Shown here piece after piece: positions 8,824-24,708 of a stretch of 32,000 nucleotides of DNA (the stretch's first letter is position 1; each line of letters opens with the position of its first letter). Made by a program: the position numbers and the translations under genes. Below the pieces are notes generated by a model. That model saw only the letters and a program-made list of their open reading frames with translations. It was not told the DNA's origin and did no database searches. The stretch comes from Candidatus Brocadia sp. (GTDB lineage Bacteria; Planctomycetota; Brocadiia; Brocadiales; Brocadiaceae): contig CP091279.1 in the NCBI GenBank assembly GCA_021650915.1, positions 2,280,001-2,312,000 of the forward strand. Reading direction: 5' to 3'.

Positions 8824-11007
8824 CTAAAACATGGGCGCCATCGCCAGCGCCGGGTGGTTCACTTTCTGCATGTATGCCGCGACTTCATCCTCAGTCTGGG
8901 CAACCGTCTCATCAGCTATTTTATTAAGAAAATCTTCGAGCCCCAGTTCCGCAGCAGTTTTGGTCAGTGTTTCTGCCAACTCTTCCTTGAGCGCCTTGGG
9001 CATCCATACAACCCGTCCCAAACCGCCATCTGCTGAAATAAATTTTCTGCTGCCTAAATAAAATTTGCTGTGCCCCATAAAGCCTGGGGTCTGCAGACCA
9101 CCGCCCACCGTTCCGGCAAGCGTGGAAAATTTCATACCGCACGGCGTCATTTCGGTAAAGTCACGGTCTACCACCATGATCCCATTGGTCATGGGCAACA
9201 TCGCCGAGATACACTCAAAACAGCCACAACTGGTCATCGGGTCTGTCATAATACTATATAAACTCACCTTCTCCAGCGACCGGTTAGAACCGTTAAAGAT
9301 AAATGAATTCGTGCCCTCCCATTGTCCCAGGGTGTCATTCACAACCTTCCCCCTCTCGATCGGCTGGTTTGGCCCGGTTGGGTTGATCTCGTAGCCCGCC
9401 TTACCATCGAGCCAACTGACGGAGCCGCACAGGCCGGAACGTTCCGGCGTAACAACACAAATATGGGTGGGAGCAAAACTTTGACAGAGTGTGCAGCTAT
9501 AGAACAAGTTTACCGAGTCGTCCGTCATGCCCTTTAAACGCGCATCACGCTCTGCATACGCGGCGCGCACATCCTTTAATATCCTTTCCACATCTTCTCT
9601 CTTTGTATAAAAGGTGACCTGCACCTTGTCAACAATAGCTCCGAAATTGCTGTGGAACTGCGAGTGGATGATACTGCCGATGTGTTTGATCCTGAACCCT
9701 GCCTTAAAGGCTTCTTTGCTGATGCGATGACGGATGATGTCTCTTTGCCCCATATGGAACAGCCCCTGGGCTTCACCCAGGAACCGATGCATCTGGCGTT
9801 CAAAGATTGGCTCAAAATCGGGCTGCATCTTTCGCCCCGCCACTTCAACCATAATCCCAAGGGATACACCGGGACCCGGTTTAATGTCGTCCAGATCTGG
9901 CCCGATAACCTGTATTTTGCCGTCCTCTACCTCGTCAATTTCTTTGGTGCACACATATTCAAAGGCAGGGACGCCAGGGCCGCCAATCTCAATCTGCATG
10001 TCCTCTTTTCTGATACGTTCGCCCTCAAAAGCCGGGCCGTAAGGCACGGGGATATCCATTTTGTGTATAGAAATCTTCAGGCCGCGGACTTCAATGCATT
10101 TATCAACGATCTTGTCAACCGGCACCCTTGAAACCACATGTTCGTAGGTGCATACGCCCGTAGGCAATATTTCCGGAATGTCGATATTTGAAATCGTCGG
10201 GAAACCATAGTTAATAGCGCCCGCTGCGTTGGCATACTGCTCATCGGTCACGGCAGTTCCTATTGCCAGGACAAATGCAAAGATGCGGTTTTTGTTATAG
10301 AGGAGATTCCTCCTTGCTTCGCCTGGCGGCACATTTCCGAAGGAAAGGGCTGCCCGGTTGGCAAAACCCAGGGAATACACTGCAGCCGAGGTCTCTTTTC
10401 CAAAAGGCACCAGACGGGTATCCCACCCCATCTGGACGCCCTTTTCAGCCAGTTGCTCGGCAAACGACACCCCAAAATTATCTGATTGTATAAAAACGTA
10501 AAGATTCTTTTGCTGAAGCTCACGGGCAATCTTCACGGCCGTATCCGCGTCGGGCGCACACCCCACAATTGCGGCGAATCCCGGGGCCGTGCCGTCAACG
10601 AACTCAATGCCGCGCTCGCGCATGATAACGTCATCGGCGGCGCCAAGCCAGATGCCATCCACCGGATGAGGCCCGATTAAATATTTACAGGCCTCGTACA
10701 CTTCCTCTGCAAAAAGTGTTGCCATCCCGGCATCCAGGGTATGCCCAAGATAAGGGACCCAATGTTTTTCTGCCGGCAATGGCGGGAGCATGCTCCGCGC
10801 CATACCCAGAATATATTCGCAATCCTCCAGGGTTTTCACGGCAACGCCCGTCATCGAGTAAATGATGGGCAGATAATACGCCGTATTGGGAAACTCCACC
10901 TTACAATCACGCCCCTTTTGCGCAATCGCATCAGCCAGCTTTTTATCAGCCTTATCTACAATTTTATATGCGCCACGGATGGCGGCGGTACAGATAATTT
11001 TGGACAT
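8824..11007 (-). CDS. acsB: Acetyl-CoA synthase (A-cluster subunit)
   Basis: 727 aa, the length of Moorella AcsB. It has the Cys-Gly-Cys Ni-binding motif (TSCGCFECI) and upstream cluster cysteines (CTLCQSF...C...C). AAGGGGTG RBS is present. Confidence 0.97.
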   Translation of the reverse strand: MSKIICTAAIRGAYKIVDKADKKLADAIAQKGRDCKVEFPNTAYYLPIIYSMTGVAVKTLEDCEYILGMARSMLPPLPAEKHWVPYLGHTLDAGMATLFAEEVYEACKYLIGPHPVDGIWLGAADDVIMRERGIEFVDGTAPGFAAIVGCAPDADTAVKIARELQQKNLYVFIQSDNFGVSFAEQLAEKGVQMGWDTRLVPFGKETSAAVYSLGFANRAALSFGNVPPGEARRNLLYNKNRIFAFVLAIGTAVTDEQYANAAGAINYGFPTISNIDIPEILPTGVCTYEHVVSRVPVDKIVDKCIEVRGLKISIHKMDIPVPYGPAFEGERIRKEDMQIEIGGPGVPAFEYVCTKEIDEVEDGKIQVIGPDLDDIKPGPGVSLGIMVEVAGRKMQPDFEPIFERQMHRFLGEAQGLFHMGQRDIIRHRISKEAFKAGFRIKHIGSIIHSQFHSNFGAIVDKVQVTFYTKREDVERILKDVRAAYAERDARLKGMTDDSVNLFYSCTLCQSFAPTHICVVTPERSGLCGSVSWLDGKAGYEINPTGPNQPIERGKVVNDTLGQWEGTNSFIFNGSNRSLEKVSLYSIMTDPMTSCGCFECISAMLPMTNGIMVVDRDFTEMTPCGMKFSTLAGTVGGGLQTPGFMGHSKFYLGSRKFISADGGLGRVVWMPKALKEELAETLTKTAAELGLEDFLNKIADETVAQTEDEVAAYMQKVNHPALAMAPMF

Positions 11008-11029
11008 AAAAACACCCCTTTAAATCATT

Positions 11030-12991
11030 TTAATGATGTGCTGCTGGCTTGCATTCCCTTTCCAGCGCCCTTCTTTCAGCCATATCGTACAACTTCCTCT
11101 CCTTCTTCTCGTTAATACCAAGCGCATCACGCTTCTTTTCGATGTGATCCATGAGCATCTTCCCGATCTTCTTTAAATCCGACTCAAAATCCCATCGTGC
11201 GCCGCACATCTCTTCCATCTCCTTTGTCAGCAACCTTTGCATATCCGGGGCGCCTGCCACCGGAGAATTCATGCCAAAGACGGTATAAATACCAGAGGCC
11301 ACCAGAAATTGCCCGATAGCAATTGCCTTTTCGCTCATCCATTCCGTGCACGCACCCGCCACCGGCAATTCACTGATATCATTTCCCAACCCGCCCTCTT
11401 TCACCATCTCACTAACGGCAATCAGAATTCGGCTGTTATCGACACAAGCTCCCGAATGCAGCACCGGCGGTATCCCAACTGCCTCACACACCTCTCTCAG
11501 CCCCTGACCACATGCATCCTTCATCTCAGGAACCATCAACCCGTCAGAAGCGCATTGCCCTGCGGCACAACCCGTCGCCACCACCAGGAAATTATTTGCA
11601 ATGAGCTCTCTTGCCAGATTGATATACGACGGCTCACATACGCCCGCCTTGGGACTTGTGCAACCGGCAATACCCACCACGCCGCGAATCCTGCCGTTAA
11701 TAATATTATCATTTAATGGCCGGTAACTCGCCCGGTACCTGCCGCCCAGCATATATTTGATCGTCTCATGGCTGAACCCGGCAACGATATTCGGCTCAGC
11801 GCTGGCGGGGATAAACACCTTCTCTTTATCCCGGTTTTTGTAATTTGCAACGGCCATCATAACAATCTTCTTCGCCGCTTCAGTGGCATGTTCTTCCTCA
11901 AATTCAACGTGTTCTGCCCCGAAAATCTTGGCCTTCGACAAGGTAGTAATCAATTTCGTGTGAAACGATTTTGCCGCTTCTGCAAGCGACTGCATGACAC
12001 ACTGGATATCAACGACCATCGCTTCAACAGCGCCGGTTGCTATGGCCGCCTCCTGAATCGTCATATGCCCGGCCATAGGAATCCCATGCCGAACCAGGAG
12101 TTCATTGGCCGTGCAGCACAGTCCGGAAAGGACAATACCCTTCGCCCCAACCGCCTGCGCAGCCTTAGTAACTTCCGGATCGCCACAGGCCAGCACAATC
12201 GCCTCGGCAAGTTGCGGCTCATGCCCGTGGACAATGATATTCACGTGATCTTTCTTGATTACTCCCAGATTGGACCTTCCTGCTGTGGGTTTTGGGGTGC
12301 CAAACATAATATCCTGCAGTTCGGTCGCTATCATGCAACCACCCCAGCCGTCCGCCAGCGCCACGCGCATGGCCTGCAGGGTAAGGTTTCGGTAGTCCTG
12401 GTCTCCGCCCATCCCCGTACGGTGCAGGCTCTCTGTAACTTCACGGTCTATTGCCCGCGGGGCAATCCCTAGTTTTTCCCACACCTTCTGCCTGCTCTCC
12501 GGCGCCCGCTTGAGGAACAACAAGGTTCCATACGGTTTCCCGAATTCCATCAGCGCCATCTCACCCACTTCTTCAGCAATCTCATTAATCTTACGGTCCT
12601 TTGTCTTTATCCCAAAACACTCGGCAACCATCATGAGCTTCTCAACATCCTTAATCCGGTAGCCGGGAGCCTCACCCCGAGCGGTAGCAACCAGCAGATG
12701 GGCCGCCGCGCGCGCATGATCTGAATGGCATGCCGTGCCTGCCCCGCTCATGCGCAGGAAATGCCGCGCAGCAAAGGTATTGGCATCAGCGCCGCAAACA
12801 CCCTTCTTCGGACCTTTCCCAAAGGGGTCGATATTACACGGACCATAATTACAATGGCGGCAACACAATGCAAGACTACCATAGCCGCATTGAGGAAGTT
12901 GCGCCTGATACCGGTCGTACATAGTTTCCATTTTCATTTCTTTCATACGATCAAGCATAATCTCGTCTGCTGTTTTTTTCTTCTCTTCCAT
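11030..12991 (-). CDS. acsA: Carbon monoxide dehydrogenase catalytic subunit
   Basis: Within ORF 11030..13099. N-terminal B/D-cluster cysteines (CGYGSLALCCRHCNYGPC) and a CooS-like body (HGHEP, CTANE, GCTSPK). I set the start at ATG 12991 (MEEKKK), preceded by AAAGGAGGGG. The track start is TTG. Confidence 0.93.
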   Translation of the reverse strand: MEEKKKTADEIMLDRMKEMKMETMYDRYQAQLPQCGYGSLALCCRHCNYGPCNIDPFGKGPKKGVCGADANTFAARHFLRMSGAGTACHSDHARAAAHLLVATARGEAPGYRIKDVEKLMMVAECFGIKTKDRKINEIAEEVGEMALMEFGKPYGTLLFLKRAPESRQKVWEKLGIAPRAIDREVTESLHRTGMGGDQDYRNLTLQAMRVALADGWGGCMIATELQDIMFGTPKPTAGRSNLGVIKKDHVNIIVHGHEPQLAEAIVLACGDPEVTKAAQAVGAKGIVLSGLCCTANELLVRHGIPMAGHMTIQEAAIATGAVEAMVVDIQCVMQSLAEAAKSFHTKLITTLSKAKIFGAEHVEFEEEHATEAAKKIVMMAVANYKNRDKEKVFIPASAEPNIVAGFSHETIKYMLGGRYRASYRPLNDNIINGRIRGVVGIAGCTSPKAGVCEPSYINLARELIANNFLVVATGCAAGQCASDGLMVPEMKDACGQGLREVCEAVGIPPVLHSGACVDNSRILIAVSEMVKEGGLGNDISELPVAGACTEWMSEKAIAIGQFLVASGIYTVFGMNSPVAGAPDMQRLLTKEMEEMCGARWDFESDLKKIGKMLMDHIEKKRDALGINEKKERKLYDMAERRALERECKPAAHH

Positions 12992-13152
12992 CTTATTCCC
13001 CTCCTTTACAAGGTTCATAAATATCAGGCCTGCCGGAATAACCTTCGGTATACGGTCAGCCTGACTATCTGCCACAGTTGCCTGCGGTAAATAGAACAAA
13101 CTATTATAAATAGAAATAGATTTAAATCAAGGGAAAATACAAACCCTCACGT

Positions 13153-13923
13153 TTATTTTGTACAATCTTCCAGATTTTTCTTTATTAGCCTTACTTCGTC
13201 CAGCAATTGGCTGTTTTCTGAAAAGACTGCCTTTCCCACAATATCAGACTCAAGCACCTTTTCGTTATAGGAAATAAACCCCAGGACGGGAATCCCACTC
13301 AGTCCCTTTTCAATCAACGCCCGGTGTTCATCGGAAGCCACTTTATTACCTACCGCATAAATTGCCCTGAGACCGATATCATCCGCCAGTTTTTTAACCT
13401 GGAAAGCCGTCTGAATACTCTTGGAGCCTGGCTCTACAATCACAATCAATGCATTTACCGCCTTCACGGTGGCGCGTCCAAGGTGTTCAACCCCAGCCTC
13501 CATATCCACAATCACCACCTCATCCCTTTGCACAATCAGATGGCTAAGCAACGTCCTCAAAAAGGCGCTCTCCGGGCATGCGCAACCGCCCCCCCCGCGT
13601 TTCACTGCGCCTAATACCATCAGTTTTATCCCTTCCTGTTCCAGGGAAAGTTTGTCCGGCAGATCAGAAACGGTGGGGTTCAATTGAAAGAATTTTCCGT
13701 ATTCTTCGGACGTAGCGCCCGTGCGTTCCTTGATCAAATCCTTCATCTGACTGATTGGTACGATCTGCGATACATTTTTCACGCCCAATGTTACTGCCAA
13801 ATTGGCTACCGGGTCTGCATCTATCGCAATGACTTTTTTCCCGTTTTCCGCAAAAACCCTCGCCAGGGTTGCAACAAAGGTCGTCTTTCCAACGCCACCT
13901 TTACCCGAGACTGCAATTTTCAT
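13153..13923 (-). CDS. cooC: CooC-type Ni-insertion accessory ATPase
   Basis: GKGGVGKTT P-loop and a CxC motif (GGGCACPE). I set the start at ATG 13923 (MKIAVSG), preceded by GGTGAGGA. The track start at 13986 is TTG. Confidence 0.9.
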   Translation of the reverse strand: MKIAVSGKGGVGKTTFVATLARVFAENGKKVIAIDADPVANLAVTLGVKNVSQIVPISQMKDLIKERTGATSEEYGKFFQLNPTVSDLPDKLSLEQEGIKLMVLGAVKRGGGGCACPESAFLRTLLSHLIVQRDEVVIVDMEAGVEHLGRATVKAVNALIVIVEPGSKSIQTAFQVKKLADDIGLRAIYAVGNKVASDEHRALIEKGLSGIPVLGFISYNEKVLESDIVGKAVFSENSQLLDEVRLIKKNLEDCTK

Positions 13924-14070
13924 ACTATCCTCACCTTTACCTCTCACTTGATTTATGAAATCATTACAATTTAGTAATTGTATCAAAATTTACAAATTAT
14001 TGGTACAGGAAAAATTCAAAATGATGGCAAAACTTACCCCTTGATTTCCAGGCTTCTGTACCTTCTGAAA

Positions 14071-14124
14071 TGTGCCATGTCACGCGAGCTTGCTTTCACA
14101 CAAGTGTGCCATGACACACTTTTT
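14071..14124 (+). repeat. Degenerate copy of the GTGCCATGACAC hairpin family, followed by a T5 run
   Basis: TGTGCCATGTCAC (14071-14083), 20 nt, then GTGTGCCATGACACAC (14104-14119), then TTTTT. The last 27 nt match 18678-18705 except at 2 positions. Confidence 0.6.
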
Positions 14125-14295
14125 GGCTAGATTTTGCATCCGTCCATTGCCATCTTAAGGTGTTTTTTCTCTTTACCCTAATTGAAATTTTGGTAATATC
14201 TTATAGACAAAAAATGATATCGTTATTTTCCTGTATCTTTATCATGGTATTTTTATTGCTAAAAGACTCCGTAACGAATAGTTCGATAGAGTACC

Positions 14296-14386
14296 GTACG
14301 ATAAAGGCAAACCCTGAGTGATCAGGGGGCGCAAAGTAGTGGATCTTTAAACCTACAAGGAAGTGGTTTAGAAATACTATTTCCAG
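14296..14386 (+). promoter_or_regulatory. Candidate c-di-GMP-I (GEMM-I) riboswitch aptamer
   Basis: AAAGGCAAACC, then CCCTGA-GTGA-TCAGGG (a GNRA-capped hairpin), then GGGCGCAAAG at 14303-14336. A second hairpin follows (TAAACC 14348-14353 / GGTTTA 14365-14370, with AGTA/TACT closing). The boundaries are approximate. Confidence 0.7.
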
Positions 14387-14396
14387 GAATAAAGAC

Positions 14397-14455
14397 AGCC
14401 TTACTGCCAAAGATGGTGTGTTGAATATCTTGAGCGGTAAGGCTTTTTTATTTTG
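14397..14455 (+). terminator. Intrinsic terminator (expression platform of the riboswitch)
   Basis: AGCCTTACTGC (14397-14407) pairs with GCGGTAAGGCT (14434-14444) with one G-U pair. An inner AAGAT/ATCTT stem is present, and TTTTTTATTTT follows. Confidence 0.7.
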
Positions 14456-14484
14456 GCGGTAAATATCCATCAGCACCAAGGAAT

Positions 14485-14550
14485 TTCAACGTTTGTTGTA
14501 GAGCGACGAGGCTCGTCGCCCTACATTGAAAAAGTTGTCGAAGGCCTAAT
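14485..14550 (+). repeat. Short copy of a dispersed hairpin element (TTCAAYGTTTGTTGTAGAG...CCCTAC...CGAAGGCCTAAT)
   Basis: It shares both flanks and the GTAGAG/CCCTAC stem base with 24727-24850, including the same A/C mismatch. It lies in the 5' leader of the 14637 gene. Confidence 0.8.
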
Positions 14551-14636
14551 GTAATGACTTTGATCCGAGACTTTTACCGATCGCAAAAGCGTAAAAAATA
14601 TTTTGATGCTGTTCATTAAGAAAGGGAGGTCCGCAA

Positions 14637-17600
14637 ATGTTCCATAACCATTTTGTTTGTGCGGTATCTGCGAAACCATATCCTATTTTGAGATTCAAGG
14701 GCAATAAAATTATACCGGCGCTTTTGTTTTTTTGTGCATTTCTTCTCTTGGTTGTACGGCAAACGTATGCGCAAGACGCAACGCCTCCAACCGTAACCCA
14801 GACGAGCCCCGCCGGGAATGAGGCGGGAGTGGGCGTTAACCGCGCCATAACGGCAACGTTCAGTGAGCTGATGAACGCAAACACGATAACGATGGCCACC
14901 TTTAGCGTTACTGATGGAGTCGCATCGGTGGCGGGTACGTTGAGCTACCTGGACACAACGGTCACCTTCACGCCATCAAACGATTTGCCGTATTCTACCA
15001 GATATACGGCAACCATCACAACAGGGGTAACCGACCTGGCGGGCAATGCCCTGTCTTCAAACTACACCTGGAGTTTCACAACGAGCATAGCCTCTCCCGA
15101 GGGTTTACAGGCTTATTATACGTTCGATGAGGGAAATGGTACCGTGGTAAATGATTCATCGGGTAACGGGAATAATGGCACCATTACGGGTGCTACCTGG
15201 ACCACGGGTAAAAGTGGAGGCGGCTTGAGTTTTGATGGAAACAATGACTCTGTGACCGTTCCCCGTATGAATAATGACGAAGTTTCTGTTTGTGCATGGT
15301 TCTACAAAAATGCAAATGACACTACGCGGCATGATGCCATATTCAGCGGGCTGAGAGCTAGCTTAAATACGCAACTTCGTGAGGGTTTTGAATTGCGGTT
15401 TCCTGCAAGCGCCCCTGATAGAATCGAGTTCGTACTCGTGACACAAGATGGAAGCGGAAACAAATCGACGAGGATTGCGCAGGGGGATTTAGTCCACTCC
15501 GTAGGAAATTGGTATCACGTTGCAGGCACTTACAACAAGACAAGCGGAGAACAGAAGCTGTATGTCAATGGAGGACTCGTTCATACCCTGCTTCATGGGG
15601 CAGGAAATACCATTGTGCCCTTGACGCTTTACTCTGACATGCGGATAGGATATTCAAGGGTTAATAATGGTTATTTTCGTGGTGTTGTTGATGAGGTCAA
15701 ACTTTATAGCCGGGCATTGACCAACCAGGAAATATTGGATTTATTTAACAGCCCCACGGTAAGCACAACAAGCCCTGCAGAGAATGAGGCAGGGGTAGCA
15801 GTGAACAGCGCCATAACGGCAACGTTCAGCGAGCCGATGGATGCCAATACCATAACTACAGCCACGTTTACCCCTACCGATGGCGTGACACCGGTGACGG
15901 GCACGGTGAGCTACACGGGGACGACAGCCACATTTATGCCGTCAGGGAATCTGTCGTATGCCACAAACTATACGGCAACGATAACAACGGGCGCAACAGA
16001 CCTGTCGGGCGATGCTCTGACATCGGCCTACACCTGGAGCTTTACGACAGGAGCGGCGCCTCCCCAGGGACTCCTCGCTTATTATACGTTCAACGAGGGA
16101 AGCGGGACGGTTATAAATGATTCATCAGGTAACGGCAATACCGGCGCCATCAACGAAGCTGCCTGGACTACGGGCAGAAGTGCAGGCGGATTGAGCTTTG
16201 ATGGGCTTAACGATTATGTTTATCTTGGCAATCCGTTGTCTCTTCAACCAGGCGCAGTTTCCGTTTCTGCGTGGTTTAAAACCACCGACAGCAACGGGAT
16301 TATCATTCGTAAACGATCATACGGCTATGGTCTCGATGTATGGAATTCAGGAAGGATTTCTTTCTGGATTTATAATTCTGCAGCCACCTTATTCAGGGCA
16401 AGTTCCCTGCTTGCCTATCATGACAATCTATGGCATCATGCCGTTGGTGTCTATGATGGTTCCACGGTCAGGTTGTATATTGATGGCGCTCAGGTTGCCT
16501 CAGCGCCTGCGGGAACGATCTTTTACGGAGCGGGTGGAATTGCAATAGGCAGAGACGGAGATTCCAGCGGGTCGTATTACAGCGGCCTCATCGACGGGGT
16601 AAGTATTTATAATCGTGCATTGAGCAACCAGGAGGTATCAGATTTGTTTCATAATCCCGGATTGTTCGACACGATCCCCCCCGTGGTAAGTTCGACGAGT
16701 CCAGCCAGGGATGCAACGGGCGTGGCGCTTAACAGCGCTATCACGGTCACCTTTAACGAGGCGATGAATGCGTCGACGATAAACACGTCCACCTTTACCG
16801 TAAGCAATGGGGTAAGCGATATTGAAGGAACGGTGTCTTACCGTGGAGAAACGGCTACCTTCACCCCATCCAGCAATTTAACGTACGCCACATCATACAC
16901 GGCAAGGATTACCGGGGGTGTCAGGGACGCGGGCGGCAATGCCATGACGGGAAACTACTCATGGAGTTTTCTTGCAGGAGCGCCGGACACAACAGCGCCT
17001 GCGGTAAACTCAACACGGCCTGTCAGTACTGCGACCACGGTGGCAGTTAACAGCGCTATTACCGTAATATTCAGCGAGGTGATGGATGCGGCGACCATAA
17101 ACGCCTCCACATTCACCGTGCGCAATGAGAGCACTTCATCTGAAATTAGCGGGACGGTATCCTACAGTGGCGTGATCGCCACCTTTACCCCCTCAAGTAG
17201 TTTGGCGTATGCCACCCCTTACACGGCAACGATCACCACGGGGGCAAGGGACGCAGCAGGCAATGCCATGGCAGCAAACTACGCGTGGAGTTTTACCGCC
17301 GTGAGCGCACAGGAGGAAATGATACCCGACTGGACAAATGTAGTTTATAGCCCATTTCACCTCGTTCCTCCCACGACGGTTACCAATCCCGTACAGAAGG
17401 GAAGCGACGTAACAGAGTATCCGGCAGATATGGTTGCAGATACGTTTCTTTTTTACGAGAACAATACCTGGTATATGTTCAACGAAACCTTAGGCAGTGG
17501 ACATAATGGCGATCTTGCTGTTTCTCTGAGTTCCGATGGATTGCACTGGACGTATCAACAGATTGTGCTGAACGAGCCATTTCATCTTTCGTATCCTCAG

Positions 17601-18473
17601 GTATTTAAATTTGGCGGCACGTATTATATGATACCGGAAACGTCTGCCGTCAATGAAATGAGACTTTATCGGGCAACAAATTTCCCCTCTGCGTGGACGC
17701 GTGAGGCGACCCTCCTCAGTGGCAGTGCATTTGTTGATTCATCCATCTTCAGACACAACGGTAAGTGGTGGATTTTTACGGGCAATGCCACGATTAGTAA
17801 TTGTTACCTGTATTATTCTGACAATCTGACCAGTGGGTGGATTCAGCATCCCATGAGTCCGATTGTAACCGGCGATTCCAATAAGACGCGACCGGCCGGG
17901 AGGGCCTTTGTGTACGACAACAACCGGATTATTCGAACCGCACAGAACGGCGAATTCGTGAGGGTTTTTGAGGTTGATACCCTGACGACGACACAATATG
18001 CAGAGCATGAAATACCCGAGAGCCCCATTCTGAATAAAAGCGGGAGTGGTTGGAATGCAACGGGTATGCATCATTTTGATCCGTGGTGGACGGGAAATCA
18101 CTGGCTTTGTTCGGTTGATGGAAGAAGCGGTGATTTTCACAGCTGGTCTGCGGGGATCTATCTTTCACCGCACCCGTCTTCTCCGGATGGCATTATTAAC
18201 AGCCCTATTGATGCTGATGTAACGATCGACAAAGGGGACTCGGTGCTGTTTTCCGGCACGGGGAGTGATCTGGGCGGTAATCTGCCGCTGAGTTACCGAT
18301 GGAAGTTCAGTGCGGATTCCGGAATTCCTGATTCCCTGCAGAAAGATCCTGGTTTAACACAGTTCAATATAGCAGGCACCTTCACGGTCACCCTTACTAT
18401 TACCGATGCCGTGGGGATCTATGACCCTACCCCCGCGGTACGAACCATTTCCGTTCTGGACACCACACATTGA
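14637..18473 (+). CDS. Secreted multidomain protein: signal peptide, 4 bacterial Ig-like (SbsA/Big_5-like) domains, 2 LamG_3 domains, a GH43-like/GINT1_N-like beta-propeller, and a C-terminal PKD domain
   Basis: 1278 aa. AAGGGAGG lies 7 nt upstream of the ATG. The signal peptide ends TYA|QD. Four ~95-aa units read SPAxxxxGVxxNxAITxTFSExMxAxTI...YTATIT. LamG_3 signatures are YYTFxEGxGTxxNDSSGNGN...LSFDG. The propeller strings are ADTFLF...HLSYPQVF..YYMIPE..RLYRAxxFPxxW..WWIF. The PKD-like tail reads LSYRWKF...TFTVTLTITD. Domain names are from memory, not from a search. Confidence 0.85.
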   Translation: MFHNHFVCAVSAKPYPILRFKGNKIIPALLFFCAFLLLVVRQTYAQDATPPTVTQTSPAGNEAGVGVNRAITATFSELMNANTITMATFSVTDGVASVAGTLSYLDTTVTFTPSNDLPYSTRYTATITTGVTDLAGNALSSNYTWSFTTSIASPEGLQAYYTFDEGNGTVVNDSSGNGNNGTITGATWTTGKSGGGLSFDGNNDSVTVPRMNNDEVSVCAWFYKNANDTTRHDAIFSGLRASLNTQLREGFELRFPASAPDRIEFVLVTQDGSGNKSTRIAQGDLVHSVGNWYHVAGTYNKTSGEQKLYVNGGLVHTLLHGAGNTIVPLTLYSDMRIGYSRVNNGYFRGVVDEVKLYSRALTNQEILDLFNSPTVSTTSPAENEAGVAVNSAITATFSEPMDANTITTATFTPTDGVTPVTGTVSYTGTTATFMPSGNLSYATNYTATITTGATDLSGDALTSAYTWSFTTGAAPPQGLLAYYTFNEGSGTVINDSSGNGNTGAINEAAWTTGRSAGGLSFDGLNDYVYLGNPLSLQPGAVSVSAWFKTTDSNGIIIRKRSYGYGLDVWNSGRISFWIYNSAATLFRASSLLAYHDNLWHHAVGVYDGSTVRLYIDGAQVASAPAGTIFYGAGGIAIGRDGDSSGSYYSGLIDGVSIYNRALSNQEVSDLFHNPGLFDTIPPVVSSTSPARDATGVALNSAITVTFNEAMNASTINTSTFTVSNGVSDIEGTVSYRGETATFTPSSNLTYATSYTARITGGVRDAGGNAMTGNYSWSFLAGAPDTTAPAVNSTRPVSTATTVAVNSAITVIFSEVMDAATINASTFTVRNESTSSEISGTVSYSGVIATFTPSSSLAYATPYTATITTGARDAAGNAMAANYAWSFTAVSAQEEMIPDWTNVVYSPFHLVPPTTVTNPVQKGSDVTEYPADMVADTFLFYENNTWYMFNETLGSGHNGDLAVSLSSDGLHWTYQQIVLNEPFHLSYPQVFKFGGTYYMIPETSAVNEMRLYRATNFPSAWTREATLLSGSAFVDSSIFRHNGKWWIFTGNATISNCYLYYSDNLTSGWIQHPMSPIVTGDSNKTRPAGRAFVYDNNRIIRTAQNGEFVRVFEVDTLTTTQYAEHEIPESPILNKSGSGWNATGMHHFDPWWTGNHWLCSVDGRSGDFHSWSAGIYLSPHPSSPDGIINSPIDADVTIDKGDSVLFSGTGSDLGGNLPLSYRWKFSADSGIPDSLQKDPGLTQFNIAGTFTVTLTITDAVGIYDPTPAVRTISVLDTTH

Positions 18474-18668
18474 TCCCACGGTCAAGCTGGAATTTAAGTT
18501 TTGTGGACAATTAGTAATTGATAGAGGGAAATTATGCGGTAGTATCTGCCTTTGAAGGGAATATCGACACAACCTGACATCTGAAATGTCTTTGTGGCGC
18601 TGCTCCTTTACCCCATAAAACTCAGATCAACTTCTAGCTTTTTGAAACTCCTTCCATTGGTATTCCTA

Positions 18669-18708
18669 TGTGCCATGACACACAAGTGTGTCATGGCACA
18701 CTTTTCTT
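18669..18708 (+). terminator. Rho-independent terminator (perfect 15-bp arms) downstream of the 1278-aa gene
   Basis: TGTGCCATGACACAC-aa-GTGTGTCATGGCACA (18669-18700) followed by CTTTTCTTT. Confidence 0.7.
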
Positions 18709-19112
18709 TGGAGTATTCATACATATTCTTTGTCGTTTTACTATAATTTATTTTGTTTTTAATCCAAGCGAACAAAGTAACTTATAGCTAAACTGCGCCG
18801 TAATCCAATTCGCGTATCGGTATCATGGCATTTGTCTTGCGCAACTCCTAGGAATCATACGACAAAATTCACCCTAATACTGGTTGAGTTCGTTGCCTGT
18901 TACATGACGAAAAAGGAGGTGGCGAGAGACAAAGAAAAAAGGAGCGTAATGCCAGAACGCCAATACAAAAATTCCTGGCAAAAAACTGAAATATATTATA
19001 CCAAAAGATGAAGAAGTATTTGAAAAGGATCGTTGACAGAAATACGGCTATTTGCAAGACCTATCGAGCCTTGCAAGATATTTTTTGTTGATAGGAAGGG
19101 AAAGGAGTGAAG

Positions 19113-21917
19113 ATGAAAAACAGGAAATGGTTATGGTTCGTATCGTACTTGGCAGTTCCTCTCACATACATTGGGCTTGCTGGTATCTGCCTTTTCACAT
19201 CGCCTGATGCCTATGGCGAAGCCTGGTTCAGAGGCATCGTGGACAGGGACGGGAACGTTGGAAGGTACAGCTCTCTGGCAACCGATTCATCAGGCAACCT
19301 GCACATCGGTTACTATGACTATACCAATTCCGATCTCAGGTATGCAACCAATGCATCCGGCTCATGGGTAGCTACCACCGTGGACAGCACAGGTAGTGTA
19401 GGCGTAAATACCTCCCTGGAGCTTGATTCATCAGGCAAGGCGCATATCAGTTATGTGGATACAACGGGATACCTCAAGTACGCGACCAATGTGTCCGGAT
19501 CATGGGTAACTACCACGCTGGATAGCGGCAACGTCCAGGAAACCGATATAGCAATTGATTCATCCAATAACGTGCATATCAGTTACTGCAACAATGACGC
19601 CCTCAGATATGCGACGAATGTATCAGGCTACTGGGTAATAACCACCGTAGAAAGCGGTGCTGCACGCAATTGTTCCCTGGCAATAGATACATCAGATAAG
19701 GCACATATCGGTTATAAGAACAGTGGCCTCAGATATGCAACCAATGCATCCGGTTCCTGGGTAACAATCCCCATCGATAGTGCAGCGCACATTGACGATA
19801 ACTCCTCCATAGCAACAGATTCGTTAAATAATGTGCATATCAGTTACCGGGATTATGGTAATGCCGATCTCCAGTACGCTACCAATGCATCCGGCTCGTG
19901 GGTAACAACCACCGTGGATGCGGATAACGCCGGCAGCGATTGTTCCCTGGCGATAGATTCGTCAGATAAGGTGCACGTCAGTTATAAGAGTAATAGTGCC
20001 CTTAGCCGTGGCCTCAAATACGCGACCAATGAAACCGGCGCGTGGGTAACAATCACGGTGGATGAATATCATGATTACCGGTATAGCTCACTGGCGCTTG
20101 ACTCTTCAGATAAGGTATACATCAGTTACTATGAGTATGGTGACGGAGACCTCAAGTATGCGACGACAGGGCATGTTTCATGGGAGATAACCACGGTGGA
20201 TAGTAGTGGGAATGTAGGACAGTATAGCTCCCTGGCAATAGACTCTTCAGGTAATACCCATATCAGTTACAGGGATAATGGCAATGGCTATCTCAAGTAT
20301 GCGACCAACGCGTCGGGTTCGTGGGTAACGACCACGGCGGTCGCTAGTGACGCACGGGATAGCTCCCTGGCTCTTGACTCGTCAGGTAATGCACATATCA
20401 GTTACATTAGTGGCTCTCCTTCAAGCCTCATGTACGCAACCAATGCATCCGGTTCGTGGGTAATAATTCCCCTGGATATCACGAATTGGAACGATTTCAT
20501 CGGAGATACCTCCATAGCAATAGACTCGTCAGATGAGGTACATATCTGTTATCGGCTTACCCCTCATTATAGCCCGAGCACCCTCAAATACACAACCAAT
20601 GCCTCTGGCTCGTGGGTCACAGCCACCCTGGTCAGCACAGGAGTCGCTGGCTATACCTCTATTGTGACAGATTCGTCAAATGACGTGCATATCAGTTACG
20701 TAGATAACACGAATTACTATGGGCATCTCGAGTATATTACCAATGCATCAGGTTCATGGGTAACCACTACAGTAGATGACACTGCGAACGTAAACACAGG
20801 GACATCTCTCTCGCTTGACTTATCAGATAACGTGCATATCAGCTATCGTACAGGAAATAGTTACGACCTCAGATACGCAACCAACGCCTCTGGTTCGTGG
20901 GCAATAACGACAGTAGATGCAACGGGCATTAAGGGTGGTTATTCCTCCCTGGTGCTTGACTCATCAGGCAAGGTGCATATCAGTTACTACGATGAGGATT
21001 GGTATGGCCATGACCTCGAATATGCGACCAACGCATTTGGTTCGTGGATAACAACGACGGTGGACAGTTGGGGCGTTGTCGGAGAATATACCTCCCTGGC
21101 GCTTGATTCATCGGGCAAGGTGCATGTCAGTTACTATGATGGTGATAACGGAGACCTCAAGTATGCGATTATCTCTTTGTCTCAAACTCCTCCTCCGACT
21201 CCAACTCCAACGCCAAGTCCCACACCGAGTCCTACGCCAAGTCCTGCACCAGGCCCTTGTCCCGGGTCGCAGGCTTGTTATACCTTCGATGAAGGAAGCG
21301 GAGATAGTGCCGGAGACTCGTCGGGGAACGGTCATGACGGCGTCATCAATGGCGCAAGCTGGACAACCGGAAGGGACGGCAGCGGTCTGAATTTTGACGG
21401 CGTTGACGATGAGGTGTCAATCCCGGCCATGAATAGCGAGGAAGTTTCCGTGTGTGCATGGGTCTATAAGCATGCAAATGATCCGCTGGGATTTGATTTT
21501 ATCTTCAACGGGCTGAAACCGCATGGCAATCCACAATTGCGTGAGGGTTTTGCTTTAAAGTTTTTCAGAAGAAGCCCCAATTCCGTGGGTTTTGTCGTTA
21601 TAACACAAGACGCAAACGGAAAAAGGAGACAGAGGACTGCGTCGTACAATCTGATGAATTCCATAGGTGGCTGGCATCATATTGCAGGCACGTACAATAA
21701 GGCAACCGGTGAACAGAAGTTGTATGTCAACGGACAACCGGTGAAGACGGTAAGACATCCACCAGGGAACAGCATCGTACCGCAGACCTATTATCCTGAA
21801 ATGAAAATTGGGAATTCCTTGTTGAGAAATGGTTGTTTCAATGGCATTATCGATGGGGTGTGTATTTACAACAGGCCACTGAGCGATCAGGAGGTGCTGG
21901 ACGTCTACGATAATTGA
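19113..21917 (+). CDS. Secreted repeat protein: about 13-14 tandem ~45-aa YATNxSGSW repeats (putative beta-propeller), a Pro/Thr linker and a C-terminal LamG_3 domain
   Basis: Track ORF 19107..21917 starts at GTG. ATG 19113 sits 5 nt after AAAGGAG. The N-terminal hydrophobic signal ends AYG|EA. The repeat consensus is W(V)TTTVDSxGxVGxYSSLAxDSSGxxHISYxDxxNxDL(K/R)YATNASGS. The linker TPPPTPTPTPSPTPSPTPSPAPGP is at 21181-21266. The LamG domain is at 21273-21914. Confidence 0.85.
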   Translation: MKNRKWLWFVSYLAVPLTYIGLAGICLFTSPDAYGEAWFRGIVDRDGNVGRYSSLATDSSGNLHIGYYDYTNSDLRYATNASGSWVATTVDSTGSVGVNTSLELDSSGKAHISYVDTTGYLKYATNVSGSWVTTTLDSGNVQETDIAIDSSNNVHISYCNNDALRYATNVSGYWVITTVESGAARNCSLAIDTSDKAHIGYKNSGLRYATNASGSWVTIPIDSAAHIDDNSSIATDSLNNVHISYRDYGNADLQYATNASGSWVTTTVDADNAGSDCSLAIDSSDKVHVSYKSNSALSRGLKYATNETGAWVTITVDEYHDYRYSSLALDSSDKVYISYYEYGDGDLKYATTGHVSWEITTVDSSGNVGQYSSLAIDSSGNTHISYRDNGNGYLKYATNASGSWVTTTAVASDARDSSLALDSSGNAHISYISGSPSSLMYATNASGSWVIIPLDITNWNDFIGDTSIAIDSSDEVHICYRLTPHYSPSTLKYTTNASGSWVTATLVSTGVAGYTSIVTDSSNDVHISYVDNTNYYGHLEYITNASGSWVTTTVDDTANVNTGTSLSLDLSDNVHISYRTGNSYDLRYATNASGSWAITTVDATGIKGGYSSLVLDSSGKVHISYYDEDWYGHDLEYATNAFGSWITTTVDSWGVVGEYTSLALDSSGKVHVSYYDGDNGDLKYAIISLSQTPPPTPTPTPSPTPSPTPSPAPGPCPGSQACYTFDEGSGDSAGDSSGNGHDGVINGASWTTGRDGSGLNFDGVDDEVSIPAMNSEEVSVCAWVYKHANDPLGFDFIFNGLKPHGNPQLREGFALKFFRRSPNSVGFVVITQDANGKRRQRTASYNLMNSIGGWHHIAGTYNKATGEQKLYVNGQPVKTVRHPPGNSIVPQTYYPEMKIGNSLLRNGCFNGIIDGVCIYNRPLSDQEVLDVYDN

Positions 21918-23068: not shown

Positions 23069-24708
23069 GGCCTGACTTTTTCCTCGATTTTATACATTAC
23101 ACTTTGTCAAGAGATGCGGATTAATTTCCCTTAGGATGTCTTCTTGTTTTTTACTCAGAGTTACTGTTTTTACGAATCTGTTTTTTGATTTTGGATCGGT
23201 GATGTACACTCGACACATCGACTCCATGGTTTCTATTGCCTCAGTTGCCTTTATTCCTATTTTCTTAAGTCTGTATTCAAGGACAGAGAGAAGTAAATAG
23301 GCGAGATAGCAAACAAAAATATGTCCCTTGACTCGATTAGTTAGCCAGAACCTTACCTTGTCCATTTCTAAAAGGCTTTTCATACATCGGAAGGATTTCT
23401 CTACGGTATCTTTTTCAAAATACCCCCTGATCATATCTTTTTCACTGAGATTCCTCGCCGAGAAGATTACCGATATTCCGTCATAGCGCCCTGCCAATGT
23501 CAAAGACTTGTAATTGGCCTTATTCCCGCTTATATATTTCTTCAGCCCCTCGCGGATATCCTTGTTCTGACCGATCTGTTGGAGGGCATGATCAATCTCG
23601 TCATATCTCCTCTCGCGAATCGCCTGCTTTTCTTTCTCGTTAAGACAAACGGCAAGATATCCATCAATCCCGTCTATCCGGTACCGTTTCTTCTTCACAT
23701 AGAAGGTGGCATTCTGAAGTCTTACTCTCTGCTTCATGGAGATGATATCCTCCCCCAGAACGTGATCGGCAACCTTCTTTAAATCTCCTTTCAACGCTAG
23801 CCCACATAACACTTCAAATCCCATCTCTTTGGCTTCTTTGATGTTCAATTGAGAAGAAACTCCTCGGTCCCATACAATACAGATGTCCTTGATATGCTGA
23901 CCTCTAAGATGAAGAAGAATGTCCGGCAGTGTCCTCGCATCAAAGATGTTTCCCTCAAATACTTTGTGAAATATTGGAATCCTTTCCCCCTGCGTTACCG
24001 CTAATCCAACCTGAATTTGCCGCTCCCTCCTCCCTTCCGCATTATGCCCACGCTTGGCCAGAGGGCAACATACCCCGTAAAAATAGATGTTCGTAATATC
24101 GTAAAAATACCCTTTCGCCGATAGATTTAAAATCTCTTTTAAACGTCCAAATATTTGCCATTGAATCTCCGCCCCTTTCATCCCCTCTACCGAATCGATT
24201 GCCTCGATCAATTTCTTGTACGTAACATCGGAAAGAGAAAGAAGACTACCCATCTCGGTCTTCTGATACCAATCTGCCATCCCCGTTAAACTATCTGGCG
24301 AAATGCAATGAGCATAGGCCAAGCTTAACAAATAGTCCCCATATTCCCCCAATATACCAGATAAATCAATTTGTCTTGCGATCTCGTCTAACATCAATAA
24401 GGGACCATAGATTGTCACCCGATCTATCGTGGAATTCGCCACCGACCCTGTTAAAATCGGTGTATCAGCTACTTCTTTACCCACATACCGGATATGCTTC
24501 TGGATAACCTTGCCGCCTACTCTTACATTTTCTACCTCGGCTAGGTAAATTGAGGCTCCTCGTTTTATCCTCCGTATAAAGCTCATAGTGCATATCGTAT
24601 ACACTACATGACGCTTTGCCAATATGCCTTTATGCTTAATTTGCCCCTATCTATTTATACTCCTTGTAATCCCGCTTTGTAGTGTATATAATTCAAGGAA
24701 AAGTCAGG
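23069..24708 (-). mobile_element. IS1634-like (IS4 superfamily) insertion sequence
   Basis: Terminal inverted repeats: CCTGACTTTTTCCTCGATTTTATACATTAC (from 23071) against the reverse complement of the right end, CCTGACTTTTCCTTGAATTATATACACTAC (ending at 24708). TAATT occurs at 23064-23068 and 24709-24713, a possible 5-bp target duplication if the left end is 23069. Confidence 0.75.
23090..24586 (-). CDS. IS1634-family DDE transposase
   Basis: Within ORF 23090..24622 (track start TTG). ATG 24586 gives MSFIRRIKRGASIYLAEVENVRVGGKVIQKHIRYVGK, a typical IS1634 N-terminus. It also has DITNIYFYG, VWDRG and a Y-x2-K-x3-E-x6-K block (GYFEKDTVEKSFRCMK). Confidence 0.85.
   Translation of the reverse strand: MSFIRRIKRGASIYLAEVENVRVGGKVIQKHIRYVGKEVADTPILTGSVANSTIDRVTIYGPLLMLDEIARQIDLSGILGEYGDYLLSLAYAHCISPDSLTGMADWYQKTEMGSLLSLSDVTYKKLIEAIDSVEGMKGAEIQWQIFGRLKEILNLSAKGYFYDITNIYFYGVCCPLAKRGHNAEGRRERQIQVGLAVTQGERIPIFHKVFEGNIFDARTLPDILLHLRGQHIKDICIVWDRGVSSQLNIKEAKEMGFEVLCGLALKGDLKKVADHVLGEDIISMKQRVRLQNATFYVKKKRYRIDGIDGYLAVCLNEKEKQAIRERRYDEIDHALQQIGQNKDIREGLKKYISGNKANYKSLTLAGRYDGISVIFSARNLSEKDMIRGYFEKDTVEKSFRCMKSLLEMDKVRFWLTNRVKGHIFVCYLAYLLLSVLEYRLKKIGIKATEAIETMESMCRVYITDPKSKNRFVKTVTLSKKQEDILREINPHLLTKCNV

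Follow-up and report, generated by a model that had tools for sequence, protein, structure and literature searches.

Does the leader of a gene for a large secreted protein in an anaerobic ammonium-oxidizing (anammox) bacterium hold a working riboswitch for cyclic di-GMP (c-di-GMP), and would the ligand raise or lower expression? The gene lies in a 32-kb stretch of Candidatus Brocadia sp. (assembly GCA_021650915.1, contig CP091279.1, positions 2,280,001–2,312,000), here called the window and numbered from its first letter. An earlier interpretation of the letters alone, the sequence-only reading, had seen in it a c-di-GMP-I (GEMM-I) riboswitch with its own terminator. We conclude, with a probability of roughly 0.7, that 14296–14454 is a transcriptional c-di-GMP-I riboswitch in the leader of this gene, and that it is an ON switch in which the ligand would block terminator formation.

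A c-di-GMP-I aptamer in the leader

Both strands of the window were scanned against 4227 Rfam families, and a single match exceeded a gathering score: RF01051 (c-di-GMP-I) on the plus strand, with 53.7 bits against a gathering score of 35, an E-value of 5.5e-8 for the whole 32 kb and both strands, and untruncated coverage of model positions 1–87 of 87. A family model of our own (R1), built from six sequences (the window and five complete homologous copies), scored 108.7 bits at 14295–14415, and the region 14290–14460 folds with z = −5.1 relative to dinucleotide shuffles. The match is far beyond chance, and 14296–14411 is a genuine GEMM-I aptamer. The core on which the sequence-only reading had built its c-di-GMP-I assignment, AAAGGCAAACC-CUGA-GUGA-UCAG-GGGGCGCAAAG, is present on the plus strand at 14303–14336, and the core and the assignment were both borne out. 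The end of the aptamer had been placed near 14390, which was too early: it extends as far as 14411, and the aptamer's 3′ strand doubles as the 5′ arm of the terminator. Because the RF01051 score passes Rfam's own threshold, standard annotation pipelines would label the element; judged by its sequence, it is a canonical-site GEMM-I and an ordinary member of a known family. Its parts are as follows.

14296–14411, plus strand: full-length c-di-GMP-I (GEMM-I) aptamer, matched by RF01051 and R1
14306, plus strand: unpaired G, equivalent of Vc2 G20 and predicted ligand contact (model alignments; invariant in 12 of 12 relatives)
14307–14332, plus strand: first aptamer hairpin (P1 of Weinberg 2007; P2/P1a in later naming), all pairs standard
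14330, plus strand: C, equivalent of Vc2 C44 and predicted interhelical partner of G14398 (both bases invariant in six family members)
14333–14335, plus strand: AAA linker joining the hairpins, read from the sequence; A14333 is the equivalent of Vc2 A47
14335–14405, plus strand: second aptamer helix (P2 of Weinberg 2007; P3/P1b in later naming), from the pair table
14407, plus strand: C, equivalent of Vc2 C92 and predicted Watson-Crick ligand contact (by the RF03167 structure line, the second position left unpaired beyond the second helix)

Aptamer positions were taken from the RF01051 and RF03167 model alignments and a pair table. In Vc2 of Vibrio cholerae, G20, A47 and C92 take part in ligand contact, A47 by intercalating between the two guanines of the ligand, and the interhelical Watson-Crick pair is universally conserved in GEMM (PMC4744006). 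By alignment, all three ligand-contact equivalents are canonical here (G14306, A14333 and C14407, the last preceded by G14406 and kept in 11 of 12 relatives), both bases of the interhelical pair are present (C14330 and G14398, equivalents of Vc2 C44 and G83), and c-di-GMP is the predicted ligand. The core GGCAAACC...GNRA...GG(A/G)CGCAAAG is conserved between Vc2 and the Brocadia element, as are the contact residues. The Vc2 tetraloop is GAAA and has a receptor, Vc2 is not known to overlap with an intrinsic terminator, and the second helix of the Brocadia element is much longer.

The first hairpin has the layout by which GEMM-I was defined (Weinberg 2007), with a 2-bp stem (14307–08/14331–32), a 3-nt internal loop (AAA, 14309–11), a 6-bp stem (14312–17/14322–27) and a GNRA cap, here GUGA (14318–21). 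This tetraloop is of the GYRA type and the 11-nt receptor is absent, which is the usual combination, and the linker between GEMM hairpins is 'virtually always AAA' (Weinberg 2007). The junction GGC (14328–30) ends in C14330. At the base of the second helix 14335–45 pairs with 14394–14405, with a bulged G14339, an AG bulge (14397–98) that contains G14398, and two mismatches (U14340/U14401 and A14343/C14396) at which most relatives have standard pairs; the distal part is a 48-nt insert (14346–14393) that varies in length and sequence among relatives. The closing helix is very short and consists of G14300–C14408, a C14299/A14409 mismatch where most relatives pair, and U14297–G14412. The same locus is present in two metagenome-assembled genome (MAG) assemblies at NCBI, the leaders of which differ by a single-nucleotide polymorphism (SNP), T14297C, that turns the 14297/14412 pair from U-G into C-G. 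A longer outer closing helix seen in minimum-free-energy folds (UACCGU 14292–97/AUGGUG 14413–18) was rejected: it is not conserved in relatives, and this sole SNP between the sister assemblies breaks it.

The aptamer-plus-terminator module was found in four further genomes, three of Brocadia and one JGI metagenome contig; a metagenome pattern scan returned seven loci, one of which (L054) belongs to the same sub-family. The copies, with their loci, are listed below together with one that is incomplete.

Brocadia MAG-01r, L005 927–1043 (L005a): before a subtilase-LamG protein
Brocadia MAG-01r, L005 4591–4710 (L005b): before a 538-aa protein
B. sinica JPN1, L064 2839–2936: directly before a LamG/Big_7 protein
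B. pituitae, L063 363–460: before a 186-aa open reading frame (ORF), then cadherin-like and Big_5/LamG giants
JGI metagenome contig, L054 382–476: before an Hsp20-like ORF
Brocadia WS118, L007: truncated at the contig end

R1 recovered the six sequences from which it was built, the L007 copy, six more distant GEMM-I on G+C-rich metagenome contigs and one weak L063 match (9068–9158, minus strand; 14.5 bits, E 0.81) that is probably noise. The resulting 14-sequence alignment (A7) is based on a covariance model, is fitted to that model and includes the weak match, and its numbers lean somewhat towards structure: standard pairs fill 95.1% of cells compared with 76.2% in shuffles, both sides have changed at 14 of the 20 pairs (five of six in the 6-bp stem of the first hairpin, seven of ten in the second helix), and none of 500 shuffles reaches the observed covariation values. 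When the registers were slid, the paired cells dropped to 29–42% at every shift, and this control is unambiguous despite the model-fitted alignment. The pair 14315/14324, for example, is U-A in the window and G-C in L005a and L005b.

Overall, the element resembles the GEMM-I family (RF01051; Weinberg 2007, Sudarsan 2008) in its two adjacent hairpins, AAA linker, GNRA tetraloop, equivalents of G20, A47 and C92, interhelical C-G pair, 5′ regulatory position and downstream gene tied to the extracellular environment. It differs in the G for A at 14329 ('GAC' junction), the two second-helix mismatches and the unusual length of the 48-nt insert. Two departures from the consensus had made the sequence-only reading hesitate; both are there, and both turned out to be harmless rather than doubtful, G14329 being a natural variant (also in L005b, L053 and L057) and the U after CAAAG being one half of a compensated pair, U14337–A14403.

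A terminator that shares a strand with the aptamer

Downstream, the aptamer merges into a second structure, for which energies were computed with ViennaRNA.

14397–14444, plus strand: two-tier intrinsic terminator hairpin (RNAfold, −22.8 kcal/mol)
14444–14454, plus strand: terminator U-tract UUUUUUAUUUU (U6AU4), read from the sequence
14397–14408, plus strand: switching strand AGCCUUACUGCC, common to aptamer and terminator (overlap of the aptamer match and the terminator fold)
14334–14382, plus strand: alternative hairpin in the full-length minimum-free-energy fold

The terminator, which the sequence-only reading had already recognized, comprises a lower stem of 11 bp (14397–14407/14434–14444) and an upper stem of 6 bp (14410–15/14426–31). 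As predicted from its sequence, it is a stable, G+C-containing hairpin followed by a run of U, the form of an intrinsic terminator. The U-tract can pair with the A-rich segment 14388–95 in the minimum-free-energy fold, and with the A/U-tract extension the terminator reaches −29.2 kcal/mol compared with −22.8 kcal/mol for the stem alone (RNAfold). A consensus terminator scan with a loop limit of 8 nt missed it. The terminator pairs are kept in five homologous leaders, with changes from G-C to A-U at 14412/14429 and from U-G to U-A at 14405/14436, and compensatory changes were found in both the aptamer and the terminator fold among family members.

The decisive feature, overlooked by the sequence-only reading together with the switch direction that follows from it, is that 14397–14408 forms the 3′ strand of the second helix, including G14398 and extending to C14407, and is also the 5′ arm of the terminator. 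Five of the six family members share this switching strand unchanged, and L063 has it with one substitution; the 5′ partner strands vary. Because both folds use 14397–14408, they are mutually exclusive. RNA that ends at 14411, at 14420 or at 14432 takes up essentially the aptamer fold (at 14420, −37.5 kcal/mol for the enforced aptamer and −38.7 kcal/mol for the minimum), and with the 3′ arm added the terminator fold wins, at −55.2 kcal/mol compared with −44.7 kcal/mol for the aptamer fold. For each of the six family members, the lowest-energy structure overall is the terminator fold, by a margin of 13–20 kcal/mol. In the predicted folds the aptamer tolerates the upper terminator hairpin, so that for termination the 3′ arm would only have to invade the second helix.

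The 'second hairpin' of the sequence-only reading, the alternative hairpin listed above, survived in part. The complementarity of its arms UUUAAACC (14346–53) and GGUUUAGA (14365–72) is real, and this hairpin is homologous to one in the B. sinica copy and sits in the variable distal part of the second helix. Its closure, however, had been drawn with the wrong UACU: the aptamer alignment pairs AGUA 14335–38 with UACU 14402–05, and pairing with UACU 14375–78 is absent from that alignment and present only in the predicted terminator-state fold, as part of a closing stem 14334–41/14375–82. The alternative hairpin is predicted to arise from the 5′ strand of the second helix once terminator formation has freed it. 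The UUUAAACC/GGUUUAGA hairpin with its closing stem was rejected as part of the bound aptamer, where enforcing it costs about 12 kcal/mol (−25.5 compared with −37.5 kcal/mol). The closing stem is not conserved, because it is built on the window-specific insert, and the folds suggest that the alternative hairpin is probably incidental.

Predicted direction of the switch and competing explanations

Since the bound aptamer and the terminator share 14397–14408, c-di-GMP should prevent termination. While the polymerase is between about 14411 and 14433, the nascent RNA would be in the aptamer fold, with the small upper terminator hairpin forming immediately downstream. If no ligand is present, the 3′ arm (14434–14444), once synthesized, would displace the 5′ strand of the second helix and zip up the 11-bp lower stem, and the U-tract would end transcription. 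Bound c-di-GMP would lock the second helix and C14407, strand invasion would fail and the polymerase would read through into the gene; high c-di-GMP would then mean gene ON. A terminator arm that shares nucleotides with an aptamer helix, in folds that exclude each other, is the layout of an ON-type platform. The same overlap, in which the 5′ side of a terminator is in competition with P2's 3′ side, was described for 78 of the 322 original GEMMs, and ligand-induced expression was predicted for them (Weinberg 2007). Such logic has been proven experimentally for Bc2 upstream of cap, the gene of a collagen adhesion protein in Bacillus thuringiensis, where c-di-GMP gives read-through (ON) by anti-termination (Tang 2016, PMC4933901). 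Bc2 and the Brocadia element both stand before a gene for a surface or adhesion protein, and in both leaders an intrinsic terminator accompanies the GEMM-I aptamer; for the Brocadia element the same logic is a prediction. They differ in that one belongs to Bacillota and the other to Planctomycetota, and their expression-platform sequences and regulated proteins are unrelated.

Several observations weigh against a responsive ON switch at this locus. Because of the second-helix mismatches U14340/U14401 and A14343/C14396 and the closing-helix C-A at 14299/14409, this copy may bind or switch less well than its relatives. We take transcription to start upstream of 14296, and a promoter scan found no sigma-70-like site on the plus strand upstream of the aptamer; in addition, about 180 nt separate the terminator from the start codon, which leaves room for an internal promoter escaping detection. 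Some GEMM-I that bear terminators, such as Bc1 of B. thuringiensis, barely respond to c-di-GMP in vivo. Finally, no riboswitch was seen in the fetched flanks of close protein homologues at L003, L004, L006, L009, L010, L013, L061 and L062 (L060 starts inside the gene and is uninformative on this point). Because several of the closest Brocadiaceae homologues have no riboswitch upstream, the association is with the gene class and not with the orthologue.

Best placed among the alternatives to an ON switch, and still unlikely, is a genuine aptamer that is weak or non-responsive, with a terminator that works mostly as a constitutive, leaky attenuator on which c-di-GMP has little effect in vivo. 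It draws on the two second-helix mismatches and the closing-helix C-A, which the relatives lack, on the 10–16 kcal/mol by which the terminator fold is favoured, and on the precedent of Bc1, a conserved, terminator-bearing GEMM-I that is hardly c-di-GMP-responsive. Yet nothing in the switching strand or among the binding-site residues is disrupted, independent assemblies show one SNP as the sole difference in the leader, and that SNP, T14297C, changes the closing-helix pair from U-G to C-G, as expected under selection for the aptamer fold.

That c-di-GMP binding instead promotes termination, making this an OFF switch, is quite improbable. OFF-type GEMM-I are known in other bacteria, for instance upstream of flagellar genes in Clostridioides difficile. 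Such a switch would depend on an anti-terminator open to disruption by the bound aptamer; in this element the terminator 5′ arm itself lies in the aptamer (14397–14408), no alternative partner is predicted for the 3′ arm, and Weinberg 2007 takes such an overlap as ligand-activated.

A shade less probable again is an aptamer that senses another cyclic dinucleotide, such as 3′3′-cyclic GMP-AMP (cGAMP) as in GEMM-Ib, or the ligand of the GGC-variant class. The scaffold of the variant model RF03167 (c-di-GMP-I-GGC) is very similar, and this model gave the best E-value in the window in E-value mode; its 52.8 bits, however, fall short of the 59 set as its gathering score. Around A14333 the window has CGCAAAG, where the RF03167 consensus has CGCGAAG. 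Within the conserved core, the consensus lines of RF01051 and RF03167 visibly differ at this one place only, with G for A at the A47 site, and the sense of 'GGC' is taken from comparing these two Rfam lines. With a score under 59 and A in place of G, membership in the GGC variant was rejected. cGAMP-selective GEMM-Ib reportedly has A at the G20-equivalent position, where this element has G14306, invariant in 12 relatives.

On four Brocadia relatives (L005 927–1043, L005 4591–4710, L063 363–460 and L064 2839–2936), RF03167 wins the clan competition with 60–68 bits, which exceeds its gathering score. A is found at the A47 site in all six family members, as in every relative, and on this residue we read the RF03167 matches as cross-hits and the RNAs as canonical-site GEMM-I. 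Because RF03167 wins there in spite of this A, score-based annotation would mislabel the Brocadia elements as the variant class.

The idea that there is no RNA element at all, only a chance match or part of the 92-aa mechanical ORF on the minus strand (14201–14479) that spans the stretch, is effectively refuted by the E-value of 5.5e-8, the absence of a Pfam match to that ORF, and relatives with compensatory pair changes and insert indels that are not multiples of three; the sequence-only claim that no credible ORF covers the stretch was literally inexact, since this ORF exists, and sound with regard to its lack of a Pfam match.

The downstream gene, the recurring module and their surroundings

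The transcription unit beyond the terminator consists of the following features.

14637–18473, plus strand: putative regulated gene, 1278 aa (ORF, domain search)
14455–14636, plus strand: remaining leader, identical in two sister assemblies
18669–18700, plus strand: perfect 14-bp hairpin, followed by the U-rich tail CUUUUCUUU (from the sequence)

The sequence-only reading had described the product as a huge secreted glycan-binding or adhesin-like protein. Its N-terminus resembles a Sec signal peptide (a basic stretch, a hydrophobic core and TYA-QD), and it carries four Big_5 Ig-like, two LamG (Laminin_G_3), GINT1_N-like and PKD domains; on this domain content the description is reasonable. It matches a hypothetical protein of Candidatus Brocadia sp. 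at 100% identity. The GINT1_N-like domain had no match to solved structures in a PDB sequence search, and NCBIfam gave only a sub-threshold TafC match. A good Shine-Dalgarno sequence, AAGGGAGG, lies at 14622–29, 7 nt before the ATG. The remaining leader also contains a G+C-rich hairpin (14503–14519, GCGACGA/UCGUCGC) without a U-tract, which is identical in the sister assemblies. The hairpin at 18669–18700 is probably the end of the regulated transcription unit. No second riboswitch was detected before the next LamG gene (18400–19200, E-value mode search).

GEMM occurs commonly in some orders of 'Plantomycetes', for the most part before genes related to the extracellular environment and often with terminator overlap (Weinberg 2007). 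The family, its presence in Planctomycetes, the link to extracellular proteins and the terminator-overlap design have all been known since 2007, and an ON example that controls an adhesin is already proven, so that the element adds little to RNA biology. Its value is local: anammox bacteria cannot be kept in pure culture, and the clumping of their cells into granules is central to how they are used in treating wastewater. In the papers searched, c-di-GMP is no more than correlated with extracellular polymeric substances in anammox sludge, and none of these papers links anammox bacteria to c-di-GMP riboswitches. The recurrence of the module before secreted LamG/Ig-like proteins suggests a direct c-di-GMP regulon for surface and matrix proteins of Brocadia. 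More tentatively, and at somewhat less than even odds, one module of aptamer and strand-invasion terminator may have been copied before many secreted LamG, Ig-like and protease genes in Brocadia-type anammox bacteria, forming a c-di-GMP ON regulon. If true, such a regulon would be a direct molecular link from the reported granulation-correlated c-di-GMP levels to the production of matrix and surface proteins. A set of secreted LamG/Ig-like proteins under predicted riboswitch control offers concrete, testable candidates for the effectors through which c-di-GMP may act on aggregation in Brocadia, and the element itself, as a compact and natural ON switch, could be used as a c-di-GMP reporter.

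In MAG-01r, two riboswitch-gene units stand in tandem (L005 850–1090 and 4520–4755). About 70 nt upstream of each aptamer are clearly homologous too (TTGTTATAT..TTTTGAyT..GGArAAGGrAATACrCTAT), and the duplication seems to have taken in promoter region, aptamer and terminator as a single cassette; in this tandem case, the only one looked at, the module copies apparently include promoter-like sequence upstream. On the A+T-rich JGI contig (Ga0233425_10000619), the module (L054 382–520) has an identical switching strand and terminator, and the ORF behind it (540–977) encodes a small Hsp20/alpha-crystallin-like protein, unlike the large secreted targets of the other copies. A DUF805 RNA (RF03081, 69.7 bits) was found on the minus strand of L011 (2538–2606) in a Bacteroidales MAG, a locus fetched solely for a Big_5 protein match; it is unrelated to the riboswitch.

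Upstream of the leader, divergent genes on the minus strand (8824–13986) are part of a Wood-Ljungdahl cluster and encode a CODH/ACS beta subunit, a prismane/CODH-family protein and a CooC-like P-loop ATPase, and this combination of CooC-like ATPase and CODH/ACS fits an anammox bacterium. About 4.6 kb downstream of the regulated gene, in a stretch of lower G+C content (0.385–0.43), lies a 510-aa ORF with a DDE_Tnp_1 transposase domain (23090–24622, minus strand). A blastn search against plasmids gave no match. Within the window, a quasi-palindromic 15-mer, TGTGCCATGACACAC (TGTGnCATGnCACA), occurs only around the riboswitch-gene unit, with seven matches at up to three mismatches compared with 0.78 expected. 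Direct copies lie at 14071–14085 and 14105–14119, about 180–225 nt upstream of the aptamer, and an inverted pair makes up the perfect hairpin after the gene (18669–18700). A related inverted pair is found in another Brocadia (L005 597–644), about 300 nt upstream of the riboswitch L005a. The 15-mer could be an operator for a dimeric regulator, an element of the repetitive extragenic palindromic (REP) kind, or simply a component of terminators.

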